From a virus, in UHGV virus genome UHGV-0285531: a stretch of 39,467 nt of DNA; one strand, 5' to 3'. The notes under the pieces were generated by a model that was not told the origin of the DNA, did no database searches, and saw only the letters and a list, made by a program, of their open reading frames with translations. Position numbers and translations under genes: made by a program. This document shows, piece after piece, positions 11,476 through 27,560 of this stretch (positions are counted from its first letter, which is position 1; every line of letters starts with the position of its first letter).

Positions 11476-11520
11476 TAGACTCAAGGTCATTACTATATGT
11501 AGTGGCCTTTATGGTTAACA
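11476..11520 (+). promoter_or_regulatory. conserved hairpin element, putative RNase III processing site (R18.5-like)
   Basis: tagactcaaggtcat-N12-gtggccttt; 8-bp stem (AAGGUCAU / GUGGCCUU with G-U pairs); one of three copies of the same element (also 19754 and 27515). Confidence 0.5.
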
Positions 11521-11572
11521 CTAACTAGTGGAGGCGACTCTACGTGAAATCTGATAAACCGGGAGGGCAACT

Positions 11573-12022
11573 ATGCTCGAATTTTTAAAGAGAGCGGCTC
11601 CGTGGTTACTTGCAGCAGTGATGTTTGCTGGTGGCTACCACACCGCTAACAATAAGTGGGAGGCTAAGGTCAATGCAGAATACACCTCGAATCTTAAGGC
11701 ATCGGAAGATACAAGGCTTGCTGTCCAAGCTGAAGTCAACAAAGTGTCCAAACGGTTTCAGGACGAAATGTCATCGCTGGAAGGCAGCACTGATAGGATT
11801 ATTGCTGACCTTCAGTCTGACAATAAGCGGCTGCTCATCCGAGTCAAACCTACGAGTGGAACCACGCAAAGTGACGGTCGATGCTTCATTGATGGTTACG
11901 CCGAACTTGACGAACGAGATGCTAAACGTCTTATCGCCATCGGAGTGAAAGGAGACAAGTGGATTAAGGCCCTTCAAGACACTGTGAGAGCCTTACAGCA
12001 AGAGAAGGAGGTGACGCATTGA
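11573..12022 (+). CDS. 18.5: Rz-like i-spanin (T7 gp18.5-like)
   Basis: 149 aa; N-terminal TM segment ([15 protein letters not shown]) then charged/coiled region; ATG 11573 after GGGAGGG. Confidence 0.7.
11673..11948 (+). CDS. 18.7: Rz1-like o-spanin lipoprotein embedded in +1 frame of gp18.5 (T7 gp18.7-like); start uncertain
   Basis: Embedded ORF with lipobox L-T-I-S-G-C preceded by hydrophobic stretch [12 protein letters not shown]; candidate starts ATG 11625 or ATG 11673. Confidence 0.45.
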   Translation: MQNTPRILRHRKIQGLLSKLKSTKCPNGFRTKCHRWKAALIGLLLTFSLTISGCSSESNLRVEPRKVTVDASLMVTPNLTNEMLNVLSPSE

Positions 12023-13782
12023 GTAAAGACTTAGTGGCGCGTCAGGCGCTAATGACTGCCCGTATGAAGGCAGACTTCGTGTTCTTCCTGTTCGTCCTGT
12101 GGAAAGCTCTGTCACTACCCGTCCCGACTCGCTGTCAGATTGACATGGCGAAGAAACTATCGGCTGGGGACAACAGGCGTTTCATCCTACAGGCGTTCCG
12201 TGGTATCGGGAAGTCATTCATTACGTGCGCATTCGTGGTATGGAAACTGTGGAACAACCCAGACTTGAAGTTCATGATTGTGTCGGCCTCAAAGGAACGA
12301 GCCGATGCGAACTCCATCTTCATCAAGCGAATCATCGACCTCATGCCTCAGCTTCAGGAACTTAAACCTAAGCAGGGACAGCGAGATGCGGTTATCAGCT
12401 TCGACGTTGGGCCAGCCAAGCCAGACCACTCACCTTCGGTTAAGTCCGTTGGTATCACTGGTCAGTTGACTGGTAGTCGTGCTGACATCCTGATTGCCGA
12501 TGACGTTGAGGTTCCTAACAACTCAGCGACTCAGGCTGCACGAGACCGACTATCAGAGCTTGTGAAAGAGTTCGACGCTATCCTGAAGCCGGGAGGTACA
12601 ATCATCTATCTGGGCACTCCTCAGAACGAGATGACCCTGTATCGTGAGTTGGAAGGTCGTGGGTATACCACTACTATCTGGCCAGCTCGTTATCCACGTG
12701 ATAAGAAGGACTGGCAGTCCTACGGCGACCGTCTGTCTCCTATGCTTCAGGCAGAGCTGGAAGAGGACCCTGAGTCCTTCTACTGGCGTCCTACCGATGA
12801 AGTACGATTCGATGATACGGACCTGAAGGAACGTGAGCTGTCCTATGGTAAAGCTGGCTTCGCTCTACAGTTCATGCTTAACCCTAACCTGAGTGATGCC
12901 GAGAAGTACCCTCTGAAGCTCCGTGACCTTATCGTAGCAGACTTGGACCCAGCGTCTAGCCCAATGGTCTACCAATGGCTTCCTAACCCTCAGAACAAGC
13001 GTGAGGACGTTCCTAACGTTGGACTCATGGGTGACTCATACCACACGTATCAGACTGTAGGTTCTGCCTTCAGTTCGTACACCCAGAAGATTCTAGTCAT
13101 TGACCCTAGCGGTCGTGGTAAGGATGAAACTGGTTATGTGGTACTGTACCAGCTAAACGGCTACATCTTCGCTATGGAAGTTGGCGGTATGCGAGGTGGC
13201 TATGAAGACTCTACGCTGGAAGCCTTGGCTAAGATTGGTCGTAAGTGGAAGGTCAACGAATACGTCATTGAGGGTAACTTCGGTGATGGTATGTACCTTG
13301 AGCTATTCAAGCCTGTAGCTTCCCGTATTCATCCTGCTGCTGTAACTGAAGTGAAGAGTAAGGGTCAGAAGGAACTCCGCATCTGTGACGTTCTGGAGCC
13401 TATCATGGGGTCTCACCGACTTATCGTCAACGCTGCTGCTATCGTCCAAGATTACCAGTCTGCCTCTGATAAGGATGGTGTTCGTAATCCTATCTACTCT
13501 CTCTTCTACCAGATGACACGTATCTCTCGTGAACGTGGAGCATTGGCACATGATGACCGACTTGATGCGCTGGCTATCGGTGTACAGTTCTTCGTTGAGT
13601 CTATGGCGAAGGATGCCAACAAAGGCGAACGTGAAGTCACTGAGGAGTGGCTGGAAGAACAGATGGAGAACCCACGGAAAGGCTTCGAGTCCATCCACAC
13701 TGAGTTCTGGGACAATGGGGTCCGGGTAACTCACAATACGGACGACGAGCTGGGACTAGGGTCCTACGTTACGTTCCACTAG
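12019..13782 (+). CDS. 19: terminase large subunit (T7 gp19-like)
   Basis: 587 aa; TTG start at 12019 with AGGAGGT 7 nt upstream (alternatives GTG 12034, ATG 12052); strong recollected identity to T7 gp19 ([89 protein letters not shown]). Confidence 0.9.
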
Positions 13783-13876
13783 CTGAATGAATAACTATAG
13801 GCGAAAACTGAATTAATAAGTAGTTAGTAACCTATAGTTACTACCAGTCTAACCTACTGTTTTATAAGGAGTTTGG

Positions 13877-13899
13877 ACTTAACTATCACTATAGGGAAG
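13877..13899 (+). promoter_or_regulatory. phage RNAP promoter (phiOR-like), +1 G at 13894
   Basis: ggacttaactatcactatagggaagac, downstream of terminase, upstream of gp19.5-like ORF and genome right end. Confidence 0.75.
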
Positions 13900-14078
13900 A
13901 CCCCCGGTTACTTATAGTATTACTGTAGTGAATATACATATGCAGACTTTATGCAAGACCTTAGGAGGCAGACTCCGAGTTCTTACCTAAGGCTTGCACC
14001 GATGGAAGGAGGTGATATTAATCATAATACCTCCAATACAGATAGTCACCGACCATAGATACAGGAGGTATGTAGCAT

Positions 14079-25406: not shown

Positions 25407-25586
25407 ATGGTTACAGTTATTCTAGTTCTAACGCTGATCAGTGGTAGTGGGCAAACTATCAGCCAAGTACCTATAACAGCACCGACATTACAGGACGCAT
25501 TCACAATATGTGACCAGTCCGGCTCAAAGTGGGCCGACAAGTTTGGCGATGTCTCAAACGTTGCAGCAGGGTATGAGTGTATTTAA
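25407..25586 (+). CDS. hypothetical small protein (59 aa) with N-terminal signal-peptide-like segment
   Basis: Not in track; ATG 25407 preceded by ttaaggagtgacca (identical to the primase RBS); MVTVILVLTLISGSG hydrophobic N-terminus. Confidence 0.4.
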   Translation: MVTVILVLTLISGSGQTISQVPITAPTLQDAFTICDQSGSKWADKFGDVSNVAAGYECI

Positions 25587-25596
25587 GGAGTGACCA

Positions 25597-27297
25597 ATGT
25601 CATACGATGACCAAGACAACGAGAGTGTCTTTCTGTATCACACCCAGTGTCCAGACTGTGGGTCCTCGGATGCCAATGGTGTTTACTCAGATGGGCACAT
25701 GTACTGCTTCGCCTGTGACCCTTCAGTCGCATGGAAGAAAGGAGACATGGAGTTGACCGAGGGATACACACCCTCAGGAGGTAGAAAGCAAGTGAGCAAT
25801 CTGTTAACGTTCGGTGAGAACGCTGGACGATATGTCCCACTACCAGCCCGTAGTCTAAGCATGGAGATATGCAAGAAGTACAGCTACTGGGTGGGTAACA
25901 TGGGCGGCAAGATGGTTCAGGTCGCTGATTATTACGACAGGTCCGGGACCAAGGTAGGGCAGAAAGTCCGAGACGCTGAGAAGAACTTCACGGCTATCGG
26001 CAGCGTCAAGTCTGACATGCTGTTCGGCTCTCAGCTCTGGAACGGTGGTAAGAAGATAGTCATCACCGAGGGTGAGATAGACGCTCTGTCTGTGGCTCAG
26101 GTTCAGGACGGTAAGTATCCTGTGGTCTCGCTTCCGTTAGGCGCTAAGTCTGCTAAGAAAGCTATGGCTGCGAACCTTGAGTATCTCGACCAGTTCGAAG
26201 AGATAATCTTGATGTTCGACATGGATGAACCGGGTCGTCAGGCCATCGAGGATGCAGCTCCAGTCTTACCAGCAGGTCGGGTTAAGGTTGCGTTCATCAA
26301 CGGGTACAAAGACGCCAACGCTGCACTTCAGGCCAAGGACTTCAAGGCCATCACCGATGCTATCTGGAACGCTAAACCTTTCGTCCCGGCTGGTGTGGTA
26401 TCCGCAGCAAGTCTGAAGGACCGCACACGAGAGGCAATGCTTAAGGCAGAGACTGAAGGTCTCATGTTCTCGTCATGCACAACACTCAACGCGATGACCC
26501 TAGGTGCGCGAGCTGGTGAGCTTATCATGGTGACTTCTGGGTCAGGCATGGGTAAGTCTACCTTCGTCCGTCAGCTCCTCTTAGAATGGGGCAGGCGCGG
26601 TAAGCGTGTTGGCATGGCTATGCTTGAAGAGGCTGTAGAGGAAACAGTTCAGGACCTTATGGGTCTGGACAATAACGTCCGTCTACGCCAGAGCAAGGAA
26701 CTGAAGCAAGATATCTTAGAGGATGGTCGGTTCGACGAATGGTATGACAAGCTGTTCGGAGACGATAAGTTCCACCTGTACGATTCATTCGCAGAGTCAG
26801 AGGAAGACACCTTGTTCGCTAAGTTAGCCTACATGGTGGATGGTCTTGACTGTGACGTCATACTGCTGGACCACATCTCAATCGTTGTGTCTGGCATGGA
26901 AGATAACTCAGATGAACGTAAGACCATTGACCGTATCATGACTCGTCTCAAGAAGTTTGCGAAGACGAAGGGTGTGGTTGTCGTGGTCATATGTCACCTG
27001 AAGAACCCAGAGAAAGGTAAATCGCATGAAGAAGGACGACCTGTTTCAATCACTGACCTACGTGGTTCTGGTGCTCTCCGTCAACTGTCTGATACTATCA
27101 TCGCCCTTGAGCGAAACCAGCAAGGTGATACTCCTAATATTGTTCAACTTCGTCTGCTCAAGTGTCGTTTTACGGGTGACACTGGAGTGGCAGGACACCT
27201 CGAATACAACAAGACGACCGGGTGGCTCGAACCGATTAGCTTCACTGGTAGCAGCGGAGAAGAGGATAGCAAATCGTGGGAAAACAACGACTTCTAA
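25597..27297 (+). CDS. 4: DNA primase/helicase (T7 gp4-like)
   Basis: 566 aa (same as T7 gp4A); Cys4 zinc finger CPDCGSS...CFAC, Walker A GSGMGKST, extensive helicase similarity; internal RBS+ATG at 25747 suggests a gp4B-like short form. Confidence 0.95.
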
Positions 27298-27348
27298 ATG
27301 TCAATGCCCTGAGTGCGACTGGAAGTCACCATACGGAGGACACCATTA

Positions 27349-27513
27349 GTGTTAAAGAAACTTAAAGCTCGATACCATCGGTTCATGTACAAATGGTGGA
27401 GTGACGAAGCAACCTTCCTGTCCAACATTCTGGGAGACCAGAGGTTCGACTCTAAGGCATGGAAGAAAGCTAACCGGAAGTTTATGTATCACTTCTTGCG
27501 TACAGACTTCTAG
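27349..27513 (+). CDS. hypothetical small basic protein (gp4.x position); start uncertain
   Basis: Track ORF 27313-27513 (GTG); in-frame GTG 27349 has ACGGAGGA upstream. Confidence 0.35.
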   Translation: MLKKLKARYHRFMYKWWSDEATFLSNILGDQRFDSKAWKKANRKFMYHFLRTDF

Positions 27514-27514
27514 G

Positions 27515-27560
27515 TCTAGACTCAAGGTCATTCACATCGAGTGGCCTTTATGATTAGACT
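27515..27560 (+). promoter_or_regulatory. conserved hairpin element, putative RNase III site (R4.7-like)
   Basis: tagactcaaggtcat-N9-gtggcctttatgattagac; third copy of the element. Confidence 0.5.

Follow-up and report, generated by a model that had tools for sequence, protein, structure and literature searches.

The question raised by this locus is what a hairpin-forming sequence that recurs between the genes of a phage represents. The window, by which we mean the whole 39,467-nt stretch analysed, comes from a circularly permuted genome of a Kayfunavirus (K1F-like, a T7 relative). The 15-mer TAGACTCAAGGTCAT occurs in it exactly three times (11476, 19754 and 27517), always on the + strand, with a second box, GTGGCCTT(T/C)ATG(A/G)TTA, lying 9-11 nt downstream of each copy. 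The initial annotation had located the first two copies exactly and the third 2 nt too early, at 27515; the two-box layout that it described, with a spacing of 9-12 nt, was recovered in all three. It had also proposed an 8-bp stem with G-U pairs. The stem and two conserved G.U pairs are indeed present, but the upper stem is 10-12 bp long and a lower stem of 7-8 bp is formed by the flanks across an asymmetric internal loop, the whole element measuring 49-53 nt. When up to three mismatches were allowed, TAGACTCAAGGTCAT gave 9 matches against 1.34 expected.

We scanned both strands of the whole window, unfiltered, with a covariance model whose training set consisted of curated RNase III sites of T3 and T7 only (seven from each phage, 14 in total). 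The model returned exactly six full-length matches, all on the + strand, with scores of 27.5-54.1 bits and E-values of 4.5e-4 to 1.6e-10; the next match had E = 2, and the minus strand gave zero. As positive controls, the model detects R6.5 of both T7 and T3, which lie outside its training set, and 8/8 of its matches in phiYeO3-12 are annotated there as putative RNase III sites. An Rfam scan of the whole window at gathering thresholds gave 0 matches, leaving the class with no Rfam name. Separating '45-nt elements' from 'GACTGATAG' hairpins, as was done initially, is artificial, since all six hairpins are one family, in which early hairpins A and B belong to the T7/T3 R1 subtype (ACAGG...CCUGA-UAG) and early hairpin C is a variant of the main type. 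T7 R1.1 is a biochemically characterised RNase III site, and other T7 sites were mapped earlier. We determined sequence, fold, strand, synteny and family membership for the six elements; from their near-identity to T7 R1.1 and the other mapped T7 sites we infer that RNase III would bind and cleave them. It is very probable that all six are T7/T3-type sites at which the host RNase III processes the polycistronic mRNAs of this K1F-like phage, early as well as late ones.

The three main-type copies occupy the positions of known T7 and T3 sites. The hairpin at 11471-11523 (+ strand, 54.1 bits, E = 1.6e-10), a predicted RNase III-type site at the R18.5 position, lies between the stop of gene 18 (11469-11471), encoding the terminase small subunit, and gene 18.5 (ATG 11573), encoding an Rz-like spanin. 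It folds with -23.4 kcal/mol (z = -4.6), its upper stem AAGGUCAUU/AGUGGCCUU matches that of T7 R1.1, and T3 R0.5 is nearly identical to it. It was present in 23/23 close relatives anchored by gp18. In environmental gp18 relatives (51-56% identity) the interval from gene 18 to gene 18.5 contained no hairpin. The copy at 19749-19801 (+ strand, 42.4 bits, E = 1.1e-7; R1.1 position, also a predicted RNase III-type site) begins at +1 of the phage promoter 19736-19753, a promoter-hairpin layout also seen at T7 phi1.1A/R1.1 and T3 phi1.1/R1.1; downstream follow an ORF at the gp1.1 position (ATG 19826) and the gp1.2 dGTPase inhibitor, and the model matches orthologues of the hairpin in K1F and EcoDS1 at 5568 and 6050. 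The third, at 27512-27560 (+ strand, 50.0 bits, E = 1.5e-9; R4.7 position, likewise predicted to be of RNase III type), has a 10-bp upper stem identical to that of T7 R1.1; it follows a small gp4.3-like ORF and immediately precedes gene 5, which encodes the DNA polymerase. In T7 gene 4.7 intervenes here; because it is absent from the window, the hairpin adjoins gene 5, exactly as T3 R4.7 (12970-13018) stands just before gene 5 (13043).

The same boxes, ACTCAAGGTC...GTGGCCTTTATGATT, are found in T7 at 5851-5905, 13855-13905 and 36820-36875, and T7 sites of the main type (R1.1, R0.5, R4.7 and R18.5) share with the window both the boxes ACUCAAGGUC...GUGGCCUUUAUGAUU and a fold in which two stems flank an asymmetric internal loop. 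They are unlike the window copies in their lower stems and apical loops. The intergenic sites correspond as well: one follows gene 18, one follows the promoter that precedes gene 1.1, and one lies ahead of the polymerase region. In synteny, the elements stand where T7 and T3 have R18.5, R1.1 (just past a phage promoter), R4.7 and the early leader. Stem-loops annotated as 'RNase III recognition site' in the T3 record have the same sequence and position as ours. The placement before gp18.5, gp1.1 and gp5 first read from the sequence is supported by the ORF map and PHROG identities, by promoter positions and by the T7 and T3 maps, and the assignment to R18.5, R1.1 and R4.7 by sequence comparison and the model, except that the R4.7 copy follows the T3/YeO3-12 arrangement and not that of T7. 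'Operon boundaries' was a loose term for these points, which are intergenic but sit inside polycistronic transcripts.

The hairpin before gene 5 also bears on the start of the polymerase gene. Both GTG 27541, the start of the mechanically called ORF, and ATG 27550 fall inside 27512-27560, in keeping with the earlier suspicion that the GTG is an artefact. ATG 27577 is preceded at 7 nt by GGAGG (27566-27570), and gene 5 of K1F and EcoDS1 starts 17-18 nt past their hairpins. Gene 5 therefore likely starts at ATG 27577 and runs to 29748 on the + strand (PHROG DNA polymerase, E = 4e-164). Several public records carry protein-coding features through the hairpin at this place, and the three Kayfunavirus records inspected (two of K1F, one of EcoDS1) leave the sites unannotated; marking them would correct the polymerase start to ATG 27577 and remove spurious small ORFs.

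The early region holds the remaining three hairpins, A, B and C, with fold z-scores of -4.7 to -6.3. Hairpin A (15151-15208, + strand, 27.5 bits, E = 4.5e-4, -25.6 kcal/mol, z = -6.25) lies between a host-type promoter-like site (15010-15039) and the first early ORF (ATG 15218), and its K1F orthologue at 709-766 has an equal model score. Hairpin B (15474-15525, + strand, 40.4 bits, E = 3.3e-7, z = -4.65) lies between that 84-aa ORF and the ocr gene (ATG 15556). With the R1 subtype of T7 and T3 (ACAGGUC...GGCCUGAAUAGG) both share ACAGG...CCUGA-UGAUAG and its characteristic pairs, with C-G replacing A-U at the closing position of the upper stem and U-A replacing C-G in the loop. In T7 and T3 this subtype precedes gene 1, whereas the window has two copies upstream of ocr, one on either side of the first early ORF; before gene 1 of the window there is no canonical R1, its place being taken by a phage promoter together with a degenerate ACUCAAGGUC remnant. 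Hairpin C (16036-16086, + strand, 33.2 bits, E = 1.9e-5, z = -4.76) overlaps the stop of a 49-aa ORF upstream of a 29-aa ORF (ATG 16106), and has orthologues in K1F (1768-1819) and EcoDS1 (1492-1543); its upper stem GAGGUCAC/GUGGCCUC has 8 bp only and its apical loop is GACUGAUAG. These early hairpins had been noticed from a common box. Hairpins and box both exist, but the box is not at equivalent places: the exact 9-mer GACTGATAG occurs at 15194, 15511 and 16056, with one more copy at 29246, and it extends from the 3' side of the internal loop to the start of the lower stem in A and B, while in C it is in the apical loop. In A and B it is a local variant of the TTATGATTA box found at the predicted cleavage region.

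Predicted cuts were placed in the six hairpins by alignment to the cleavage coordinates that the T7 GenBank annotation reportedly gives (Dunn and Studier, 1983). These are self-consistent in that nine of the ten share a single alignment column, the exception being R13. Homology thus predicts a single cut after U11512 at the R18.5 position, and cuts after U19790 at the R1.1 position, after U27551 at the R4.7 position, after U15197 in hairpin A and after U15514 in hairpin B. In hairpin C the homologous position would be after A16075, the least certain prediction of the six.

Structure prediction, the check named beforehand, gave the same architecture in 6/6 minimum free energy folds, a lower stem and, beyond an asymmetric internal loop, an upper one of 8-12 bp, with z-scores of -3.1 to -6.3 (-3.1 to -4.6 for the three main copies). 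Of the cells in the T3/T7 alignment, 93.9% pair, compared with 78% after shuffling and 34-48% when slid, and double changes across paralogues occur at ten pairs, a number reached in 0/500 shuffles. Among R18.5 orthologues, whose diversity is low (12 distinct sequences), 99% of cells pair, C-G and U-A replace each other in both directions, and pairing is kept in an apical stem whose length ranges from 9 to 17 bp. The sense strand is 3-13 kcal/mol more stable than its complement in 5/6 elements because of the conserved G.U pairs (in hairpin B, -22.9 vs -10.2 kcal/mol); hairpin A, which also has the weak model score of 27.5 bits, is equally stable on the complementary strand.

These data bear on explanations that dispense with RNA processing. 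Near-identical core copies scattered in the genome, and a core that is the same across genera, even in SP6, could also be expected of hot spots for recombination, cruciforms, binding sites for proteins or a small mobile repeat, DNA-level features whose palindromic form would be coincidental. We consider this highly improbable: the conserved G.U pairs become C.A mismatches on the other strand, where five of six complements fold much worse, every copy is sense-oriented with no minus-strand match, and compensatory changes keep the RNA pairing; lower stems differ among copies, and the elements are therefore not a copied mobile unit. The chance that the repeated motif is mere coincidence, for which the boxes offer only their short length, is negligible, and we rejected it on shuffle counts (0/100 reach the observed 9 matches), on model E-values down to 1e-10 and on conservation of the element in 450 phage records. 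Stable, G+C-containing hairpins in intergenic regions might equally suggest places where the RNA polymerase of host or phage terminates or pauses, yet none of the six is followed by a U-run, a scan of 14700-16200 gave 0 terminator-like sites, and the genome's real terminator-type hairpins (~21725-21753 and 36709-36748) differ in having a G+C-rich stem and then a U-rich tract or U-run. The T7 homologues of these sites are not known to be terminators, and this role is extremely improbable here.

A closer alternative is that some hairpins, especially C, are bound by RNase III yet uncut, or are passive structures that stabilise the mRNA or modulate translation. The relevant substrate rules for the E. 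coli enzyme (Pertzev and Nicholson, 2006; PMC1540722) are a proximal box of G-C/A-U/A-U, a distal box of U-A and U.G, and an 11-bp helix, within substrates of about two helical turns of dsRNA, as in the window elements. Judged by eye, 11471-11523 and 27512-27560 appear to have the required pairs, the G-C/A-U/A-U and U.G/U-A of T7 R1.1, whereas 19749-19801 and 16036-16086 depart from the optimum: the former has G-C in place of U-A at distal-box position 1. The box pairs of A and B follow the R1 subtype. In hairpin C the 8-bp upper stem falls short of the 11-bp minimum reported for efficient cleavage, proximal-box position 3 is G-C, and A replaces the family-invariant U before the cut; R1.1 variants that bind RNase III without being cleaved provide a precedent (PMC1540722). 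Hairpin C may accordingly be a poor substrate, or bound but not cut. Against this, the family model matches it from end to end (E = 1.9e-5) and it is kept in K1F and EcoDS1, and the other five hairpins conform well to cleaved T7 sites, which makes the alternative improbable for the set.

If the six elements are RNase III processing sites, each would fold in the + strand transcript into about two helical turns of dsRNA (7-8 bp in the lower stem, 8-12 bp in the upper). E. coli RNase III would dock on the upper stem through proximal-box and distal-box base pairs and, because of the internal loop, would cut the 3' strand only, by T7 homology after the U of ...CCUUUAU|GAU.... Internal loops are known to limit the enzyme to one-strand cleavage, leaving a protective 3' hairpin (PMC1540722). 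The upstream mRNA would thus end in a stable hairpin shielded from 3' exonucleases, and the downstream mRNA would acquire a 5' end of its own, a short distance upstream of the following ribosome-binding site. Knowing the sites is chiefly of use in annotation, and they give expected mRNA boundaries for expression and engineering of K1F-like therapeutic phages. T7-type RNase III sites are already known, and nothing here is new for RNase III biology.

The window and T3 differ in the number of sites, ten being annotated in T3 against six found by the model. The window has no R1.3 site, because its genes 1.2 and 1.3 overlap. The window counterparts of R3.8, R6.5 and R13 have diverged from T3 in sequence, and the T3/T7 model matched none of the three candidates, all on the + strand. 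A candidate R3.8-type hairpin (25350-25376, 11-bp stem) lies at +1 of the phage promoter 25337-25354; its 3' flank CCCUUUGUUCGCAUU is also found in the T7 R3.8 region, and the annotated T3 R3.8 is of the same simple-hairpin type. At the R6.5 position, a candidate structure at 31403-31490 (z = -2.5) has an 11-bp stem (31403-31413 with 31480-31490) enclosing promoter 31449-31466, as R6.5 of T3 and T7 encloses a promoter, and the same structure occurs in K1F and EcoDS1. At the R13 position, a candidate at 329-378 (z = -3.3) has a perfect 12-bp stem (329-340 with 367-378) that encloses phage promoter 349-366 before gene 13, as T3 R13 encloses phi13. The T7 gp0.7 kinase stimulates RNase III; no homologue of it was found in the window, and processing efficiency may therefore differ from that of T7.

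The hairpin family was found in 450 phage records, almost only with Enterobacterales hosts recorded, in Studiervirinae (the window phage, T7, T3, K11 and K1F) and in Molineuxvirinae (SP6). It is conceivable, if unlikely, that more than simple inheritance is at work, the sites having been repeatedly exchanged or homogenised by recombination as crossover points at module boundaries, or having adapted by convergence to the RNase III of Enterobacterales, with hairpin C perhaps a bound-uncut regulatory site in a phage devoid of gp0.7. The Pseudomonas phage gh-1, a T7 relative, has annotated 'putative RNase III sites' of the same functional class, and the T3/T7 model found no match in it. K1F and EcoDS1 keep orthologues of the window hairpins, and within the window the dispersed copies keep near-identical cores.

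Many Kayfunavirus phages of Escherichia (K1F-like Studiervirinae, relatives of T7) matched the window between 11000 and 20000 at 93-97% identity over >90% of the length. Relative to a Kayfunavirus-type genome the window is circularly permuted: genes 13-19 come first, followed by the genome ends and early region at ~13.8-15.2 kb and then by genes 1 to 12. All of its genes lie on the + strand, and the phage promoter TAACTATCACTATAGGGA was matched nine times with ≤3 mismatches, against 0.03 expected. Upstream of the early promoters, the non-coding stretch 14240-14800 carries hairpins and dense short repeats like CCTACAGT and ACCTACGGT, which resemble the arrays of repeats close to the genome ends in the T7 group.

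Exact copies of TAGACTCAAGGTCAT were found at 11476, 19754 and 27517, each followed after 9-11 nt by a second box, GTGGCCTT(T/C)ATG(A/G)TTA. The initial annotation had placed the first two copies correctly but the third at 27515, a slip of 2 nt. With ≤3 mismatches TAGACTCAAGGTCAT matched nine times against 1.34 expected, a count reached in 0 of 100 shuffles. The stem with G.U pairs described earlier was also present, but 8 bp was too small a size for it: the upper stem of the three main copies comprises 10-12 bp, including two conserved G.U pairs, and is joined by an asymmetric internal loop to a 7-8 bp lower stem built from flanking sequence. RNA folding gave -20 to -23 kcal/mol for these copies (z -3.1 to -4.6). 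The three early hairpins proposed alongside them, A (15151-15208), B (15474-15525) and C (16036-16086), do exist; they share the architecture of the main copies, fold with z-scores of -4.7 to -6.3, and all contain an exact GACTGATAG 9-mer. An MFE scan along the whole window with a sliding 64-nt frame gave too much noise, returning hundreds of coding-region hairpins at ≤ -19 kcal/mol, and was replaced by a fold search restricted to intergenic gaps. The neighboring genes were as previously assigned, namely the terminase small subunit and an Rz-like spanin around the 11471 copy, a gp1.1-position ORF followed by the gp1.2 dGTPase inhibitor at the 19749 copy, and a gp4.3-like ORF and DNA polymerase around the 27512 copy.

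Membership in the T7 group of sites was examined with a covariance model built from seven T3 and seven T7 sites. No window sequence entered the training alignment, on which the lower-stem, loop and upper-stem structure was imposed. Within it 93.9% of cells pair, compared with 78% in shuffled alignments and 34-48% with slid partners, and both partners have changed in ten pairs, a number reached in 0 of 500 shuffles. Run over the whole window on both strands with filters off, the model returned exactly six significant matches, all full length and on the + strand. These were the R18.5-position hairpin at 11471-11523 (54.1 bits, E 1.6e-10), the R4.7-position hairpin at 27512-27560 (50.0 bits, E 1.5e-9), the R1.1-position hairpin at 19749-19801 (42.4 bits, E 1.1e-7), and early hairpins B (40.4 bits, E 3.3e-7), C (33.2 bits, E 1.9e-5) and A (27.5 bits, E 4.5e-4). 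They are precisely the six elements picked out in the initial annotation; the next match on either strand of the window scored only 12.4 bits (E = 2). As positive controls, the model recovered the T7 and T3 R6.5 sites, which are absent from the training set, and all eight of its matches in phiYeO3-12 coincided with annotated 'putative RNase III site' features. It found the same six positions in K1F and five in EcoDS1. An Rfam search at gathering thresholds returned no family.

The model alignment places all six elements in one family, and the earlier division into two classes was not retained. In hairpins A and B, GACUGAUAG lines up with the UUAUGAUUA box that the other copies carry, a position that forms the internal loop's 3' side and the start of the lower stem. 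In hairpin C, GACUGAUAG is the apical loop, and the shared 9-mer there is therefore not positional homology. We accordingly rejected GACTGATAG as a separate class. Hairpins A and B belong to the T7/T3 R1 sequence subtype (ACAGGUC...GGCCUGAAUAGG) and carry the covarying pairs that distinguish R1, C-G for A-U and U-A for C-G. Hairpin C is a variant of the main type (GAGGUCAC/GUGGCCUC) in which a double change has turned A-U into G-C. The best host-type promoter (15010-15039, 10 of 12 matches) is upstream of hairpin A, and the first early gene is downstream of this hairpin. Hairpin C is followed at 16106-16195 by a 29-aa hydrophobic ORF (MNIGYWVCLAPVILMIGYGVYDCIKRKSL) that has a GGAG ribosome-binding site and falls below the usual ORF-length cut-offs. 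An ORF annotated in EcoDS1 (1493-1636) overlaps the orthologue of hairpin C and is probably over-extended or spurious.

A fixed-spacing pattern search found no match in T7 because loop lengths differ, and the homology became visible on direct reading of the T7 intergenic regions: at 5851-5905, after promoter phi1.1A (ACUCAAGGUCAUUC-GCAA-GAGUGGCCUUUAUGAUU), 13855-13905 (CUCAAGGUCGCC...GGUGGCCUUCAUGAAU), 36820-36875 (ACUCAAGGCCAC...GUGGUCUUUAUGGAU) and 1434-1496 (UAGACUCAAGGUC...GUGGCCUUUAUGAUUA). All 10 bp of the upper stem in the 27512 copy are the same as in T7 R1.1, and the 19749 copy starts at +1 of a phage promoter, as in T7 phi1.1A/R1.1. The T7 RefSeq record has no RNase III features; such features are present in the T3, phiYeO3-12 and gh-1 records. 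The T3 RefSeq record lists ten stem_loop features labeled 'RNase III recognition site', from R0.3 to R18.5, whose sequences are those of the window's family; T3 R0.5, for example, reads AGUGUUAAACUCAAGGUCAU...GUGGCCUUUAUGAUUAACAUU, and the window's 11471 copy AGUGUUAGACUCAAGGUCAU...GUGGCCUUUAUGGUUAACACU. In T3, R4.7 comes immediately before gene 5, exactly as in the window. The model matches and the near-identity to T7 sites bear out the original assignment, with small corrections, and support the six elements as RNase III processing sites of the T7 type that a K1F-like phage carries as orthologues. As a kind the feature is textbook and already known, its sequence being nearly identical to T7 sites mapped earlier. 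Unlike T7, the window has overlapping genes 1.2 and 1.3 and hence no R1.3. The gp0.7 protein kinase stimulates RNase III in T7 infection; no homologue was found by tblastn across the whole window. From ocr to gene 1, the early region contains small ORFs only.

Terminator, DNA-level and chance explanations were each considered and rejected. No U-run follows any of the six hairpins, and a terminator scan of the early region found no sites. Several observations indicate that the structure works at the RNA level. All copies are in sense orientation, and because of the conserved G.U pairs five of the six fold far more stably from the + strand than from its complement (-22.9/-10.2, -20.1/-14.0, -18.8/-15.7, -18.7/-10.0 and -23.1/-12.2 kcal/mol). 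At loci of relatives picked by the neighboring gp18 protein, not by RNA, the R18.5 hairpin was kept in 23 of 23 close relatives. In one of these (L020), a ~480-bp insertion (962-1445) separates it from gene 18 and the hairpin is retained downstream. Among the R18.5 relatives the apex ranges from 9 to 17 bp and is still paired, and one relative shows AAGGUU/GUAGCCUU, a C-G to U-A double change. The diversity of these orthologues is modest (12 distinct sequences), and most of the covariation evidence therefore comes from paralogues.

In T7, polycistronic mRNAs are cleaved by host RNase III at hairpins of this kind; internal loops confine the cut to one phosphodiester, and the remaining 3' hairpin shields upstream RNA from 3'-5' exonucleases (bioRxiv 10.1101/106799, citing Dunn and Studier 1983; PMC1540722). 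Recognition involves an 11-bp helix holding a 4-bp proximal box (G-C, A-U/U-A, A-U, A-U/U-A) and a 2-bp distal box (U-A, U.G) (bioRxiv 10.1101/106799; PMC1540722). The pairs of both boxes are present in the 11471 and 27512 copies; the 19749 copy has G-C at distal-box position 1, and hairpin C has a short stem with G-C at proximal-box position 3. We take the T7 cleavage coordinates (T7 GenBank annotation) to be 890, 1468, 3138, 5887, 6448, 11203, 13892, 18563, 27281 and 36856. Nine of these ten fall in one alignment column, after the base 4 nt 3' of CCUU, with 27281 (R13) outside it. Transferring this column from the presumed T7 coordinates, we infer that the window's transcripts would be cut after 11512, 19790, 27551, 15197, 15514 and 16075, the last being the least certain. 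In keeping with this, 9-49 nt separate the end of each hairpin from the start codon that follows. A search of full-text literature found no paper on RNase III sites of K1F-like phages.

Three further structures resemble T7/T3 arrangements at the R3.8, R6.5 and R13 positions; the model, run on the whole window, matched none of them. The R3.8-position candidate (25350-25376), an 11-bp hairpin, starts at +1 of the promoter at 25337-25354. The T7 R3.8 region has the same 3' flank, CCCTTTGTTCGCATT, and the hairpin is therefore probably an R3.8 counterpart. The R6.5-position candidate (31403-31490) is an 11-bp stem of ATAGTCATATC with GATATGACTAT ahead of gene 6.5, and it encloses promoter 31449-31466, an arrangement also seen in T3. 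This candidate is an analogue of T3/T7 R6.5, is also present in K1F and EcoDS1, and went unmatched because its sequence has diverged. The R13-position candidate (329-378) is a perfect 12-bp stem (329-340 with 367-378) around phage promoter 349-366 before gene 13, the same promoter-enclosing arrangement as the annotated T3 R13; both arms occur together in read-through transcripts only. The window also differs from T7 in having no canonical R1. Directly upstream of gene 1 (RNA polymerase), 16658-16723 holds a phage promoter (16658) and then a degenerate ACTCAAGGTC...GACCAAAGAGATT remnant, which looks like a decayed R1-type site. The stretch 16661-16723, with its ACUCAAGGUC box, was rejected as a canonical R1 (5-bp stem, z -0.95, no model match).

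The value of the six elements is for annotation only. The mechanical ORF 27541-29748 begins inside the 27512 hairpin; ATG 27577 has GGAGG 7 nt upstream, and gene 5 of K1F and EcoDS1 starts 17-18 nt past their hairpins; GTG 27541 was thus rightly called an artefact. In several public records CDS features extend through the hairpin before gene 5, and these are probably over-extended or spurious ORFs. At the equivalent of 27401-27560, SD6, PE3-1 and K1F (NC_007636) carry a CDS over the hairpin, as 'gp4.4', a hypothetical protein or an over-long polymerase.

The 49-nt element matched 450 phage records, of which almost every one comes from Escherichia, Salmonella, Klebsiella, Enterobacter, Citrobacter, Shigella or Yersinia. 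SP6, of another subfamily (Molineuxvirinae), has two clear members at 12226-12268 and 30551-30604 (54 and 44 bits), one with an AAGGUU/AGCCUU compensatory change. The model found no match in Pseudomonas phage gh-1, whose record nonetheless lists putative RNase III sites. In environmental gp18 relatives (51-56% identity), the hairpin is missing between genes 18 and 18.5. The record of 'Enterococcus phage EFA-2' has a T7-type site, and 'Acinetobacter phage vB_Aba_01KA' is 94.8% identical to the coliphage-type window over 9 kb; both host labels look doubtful.
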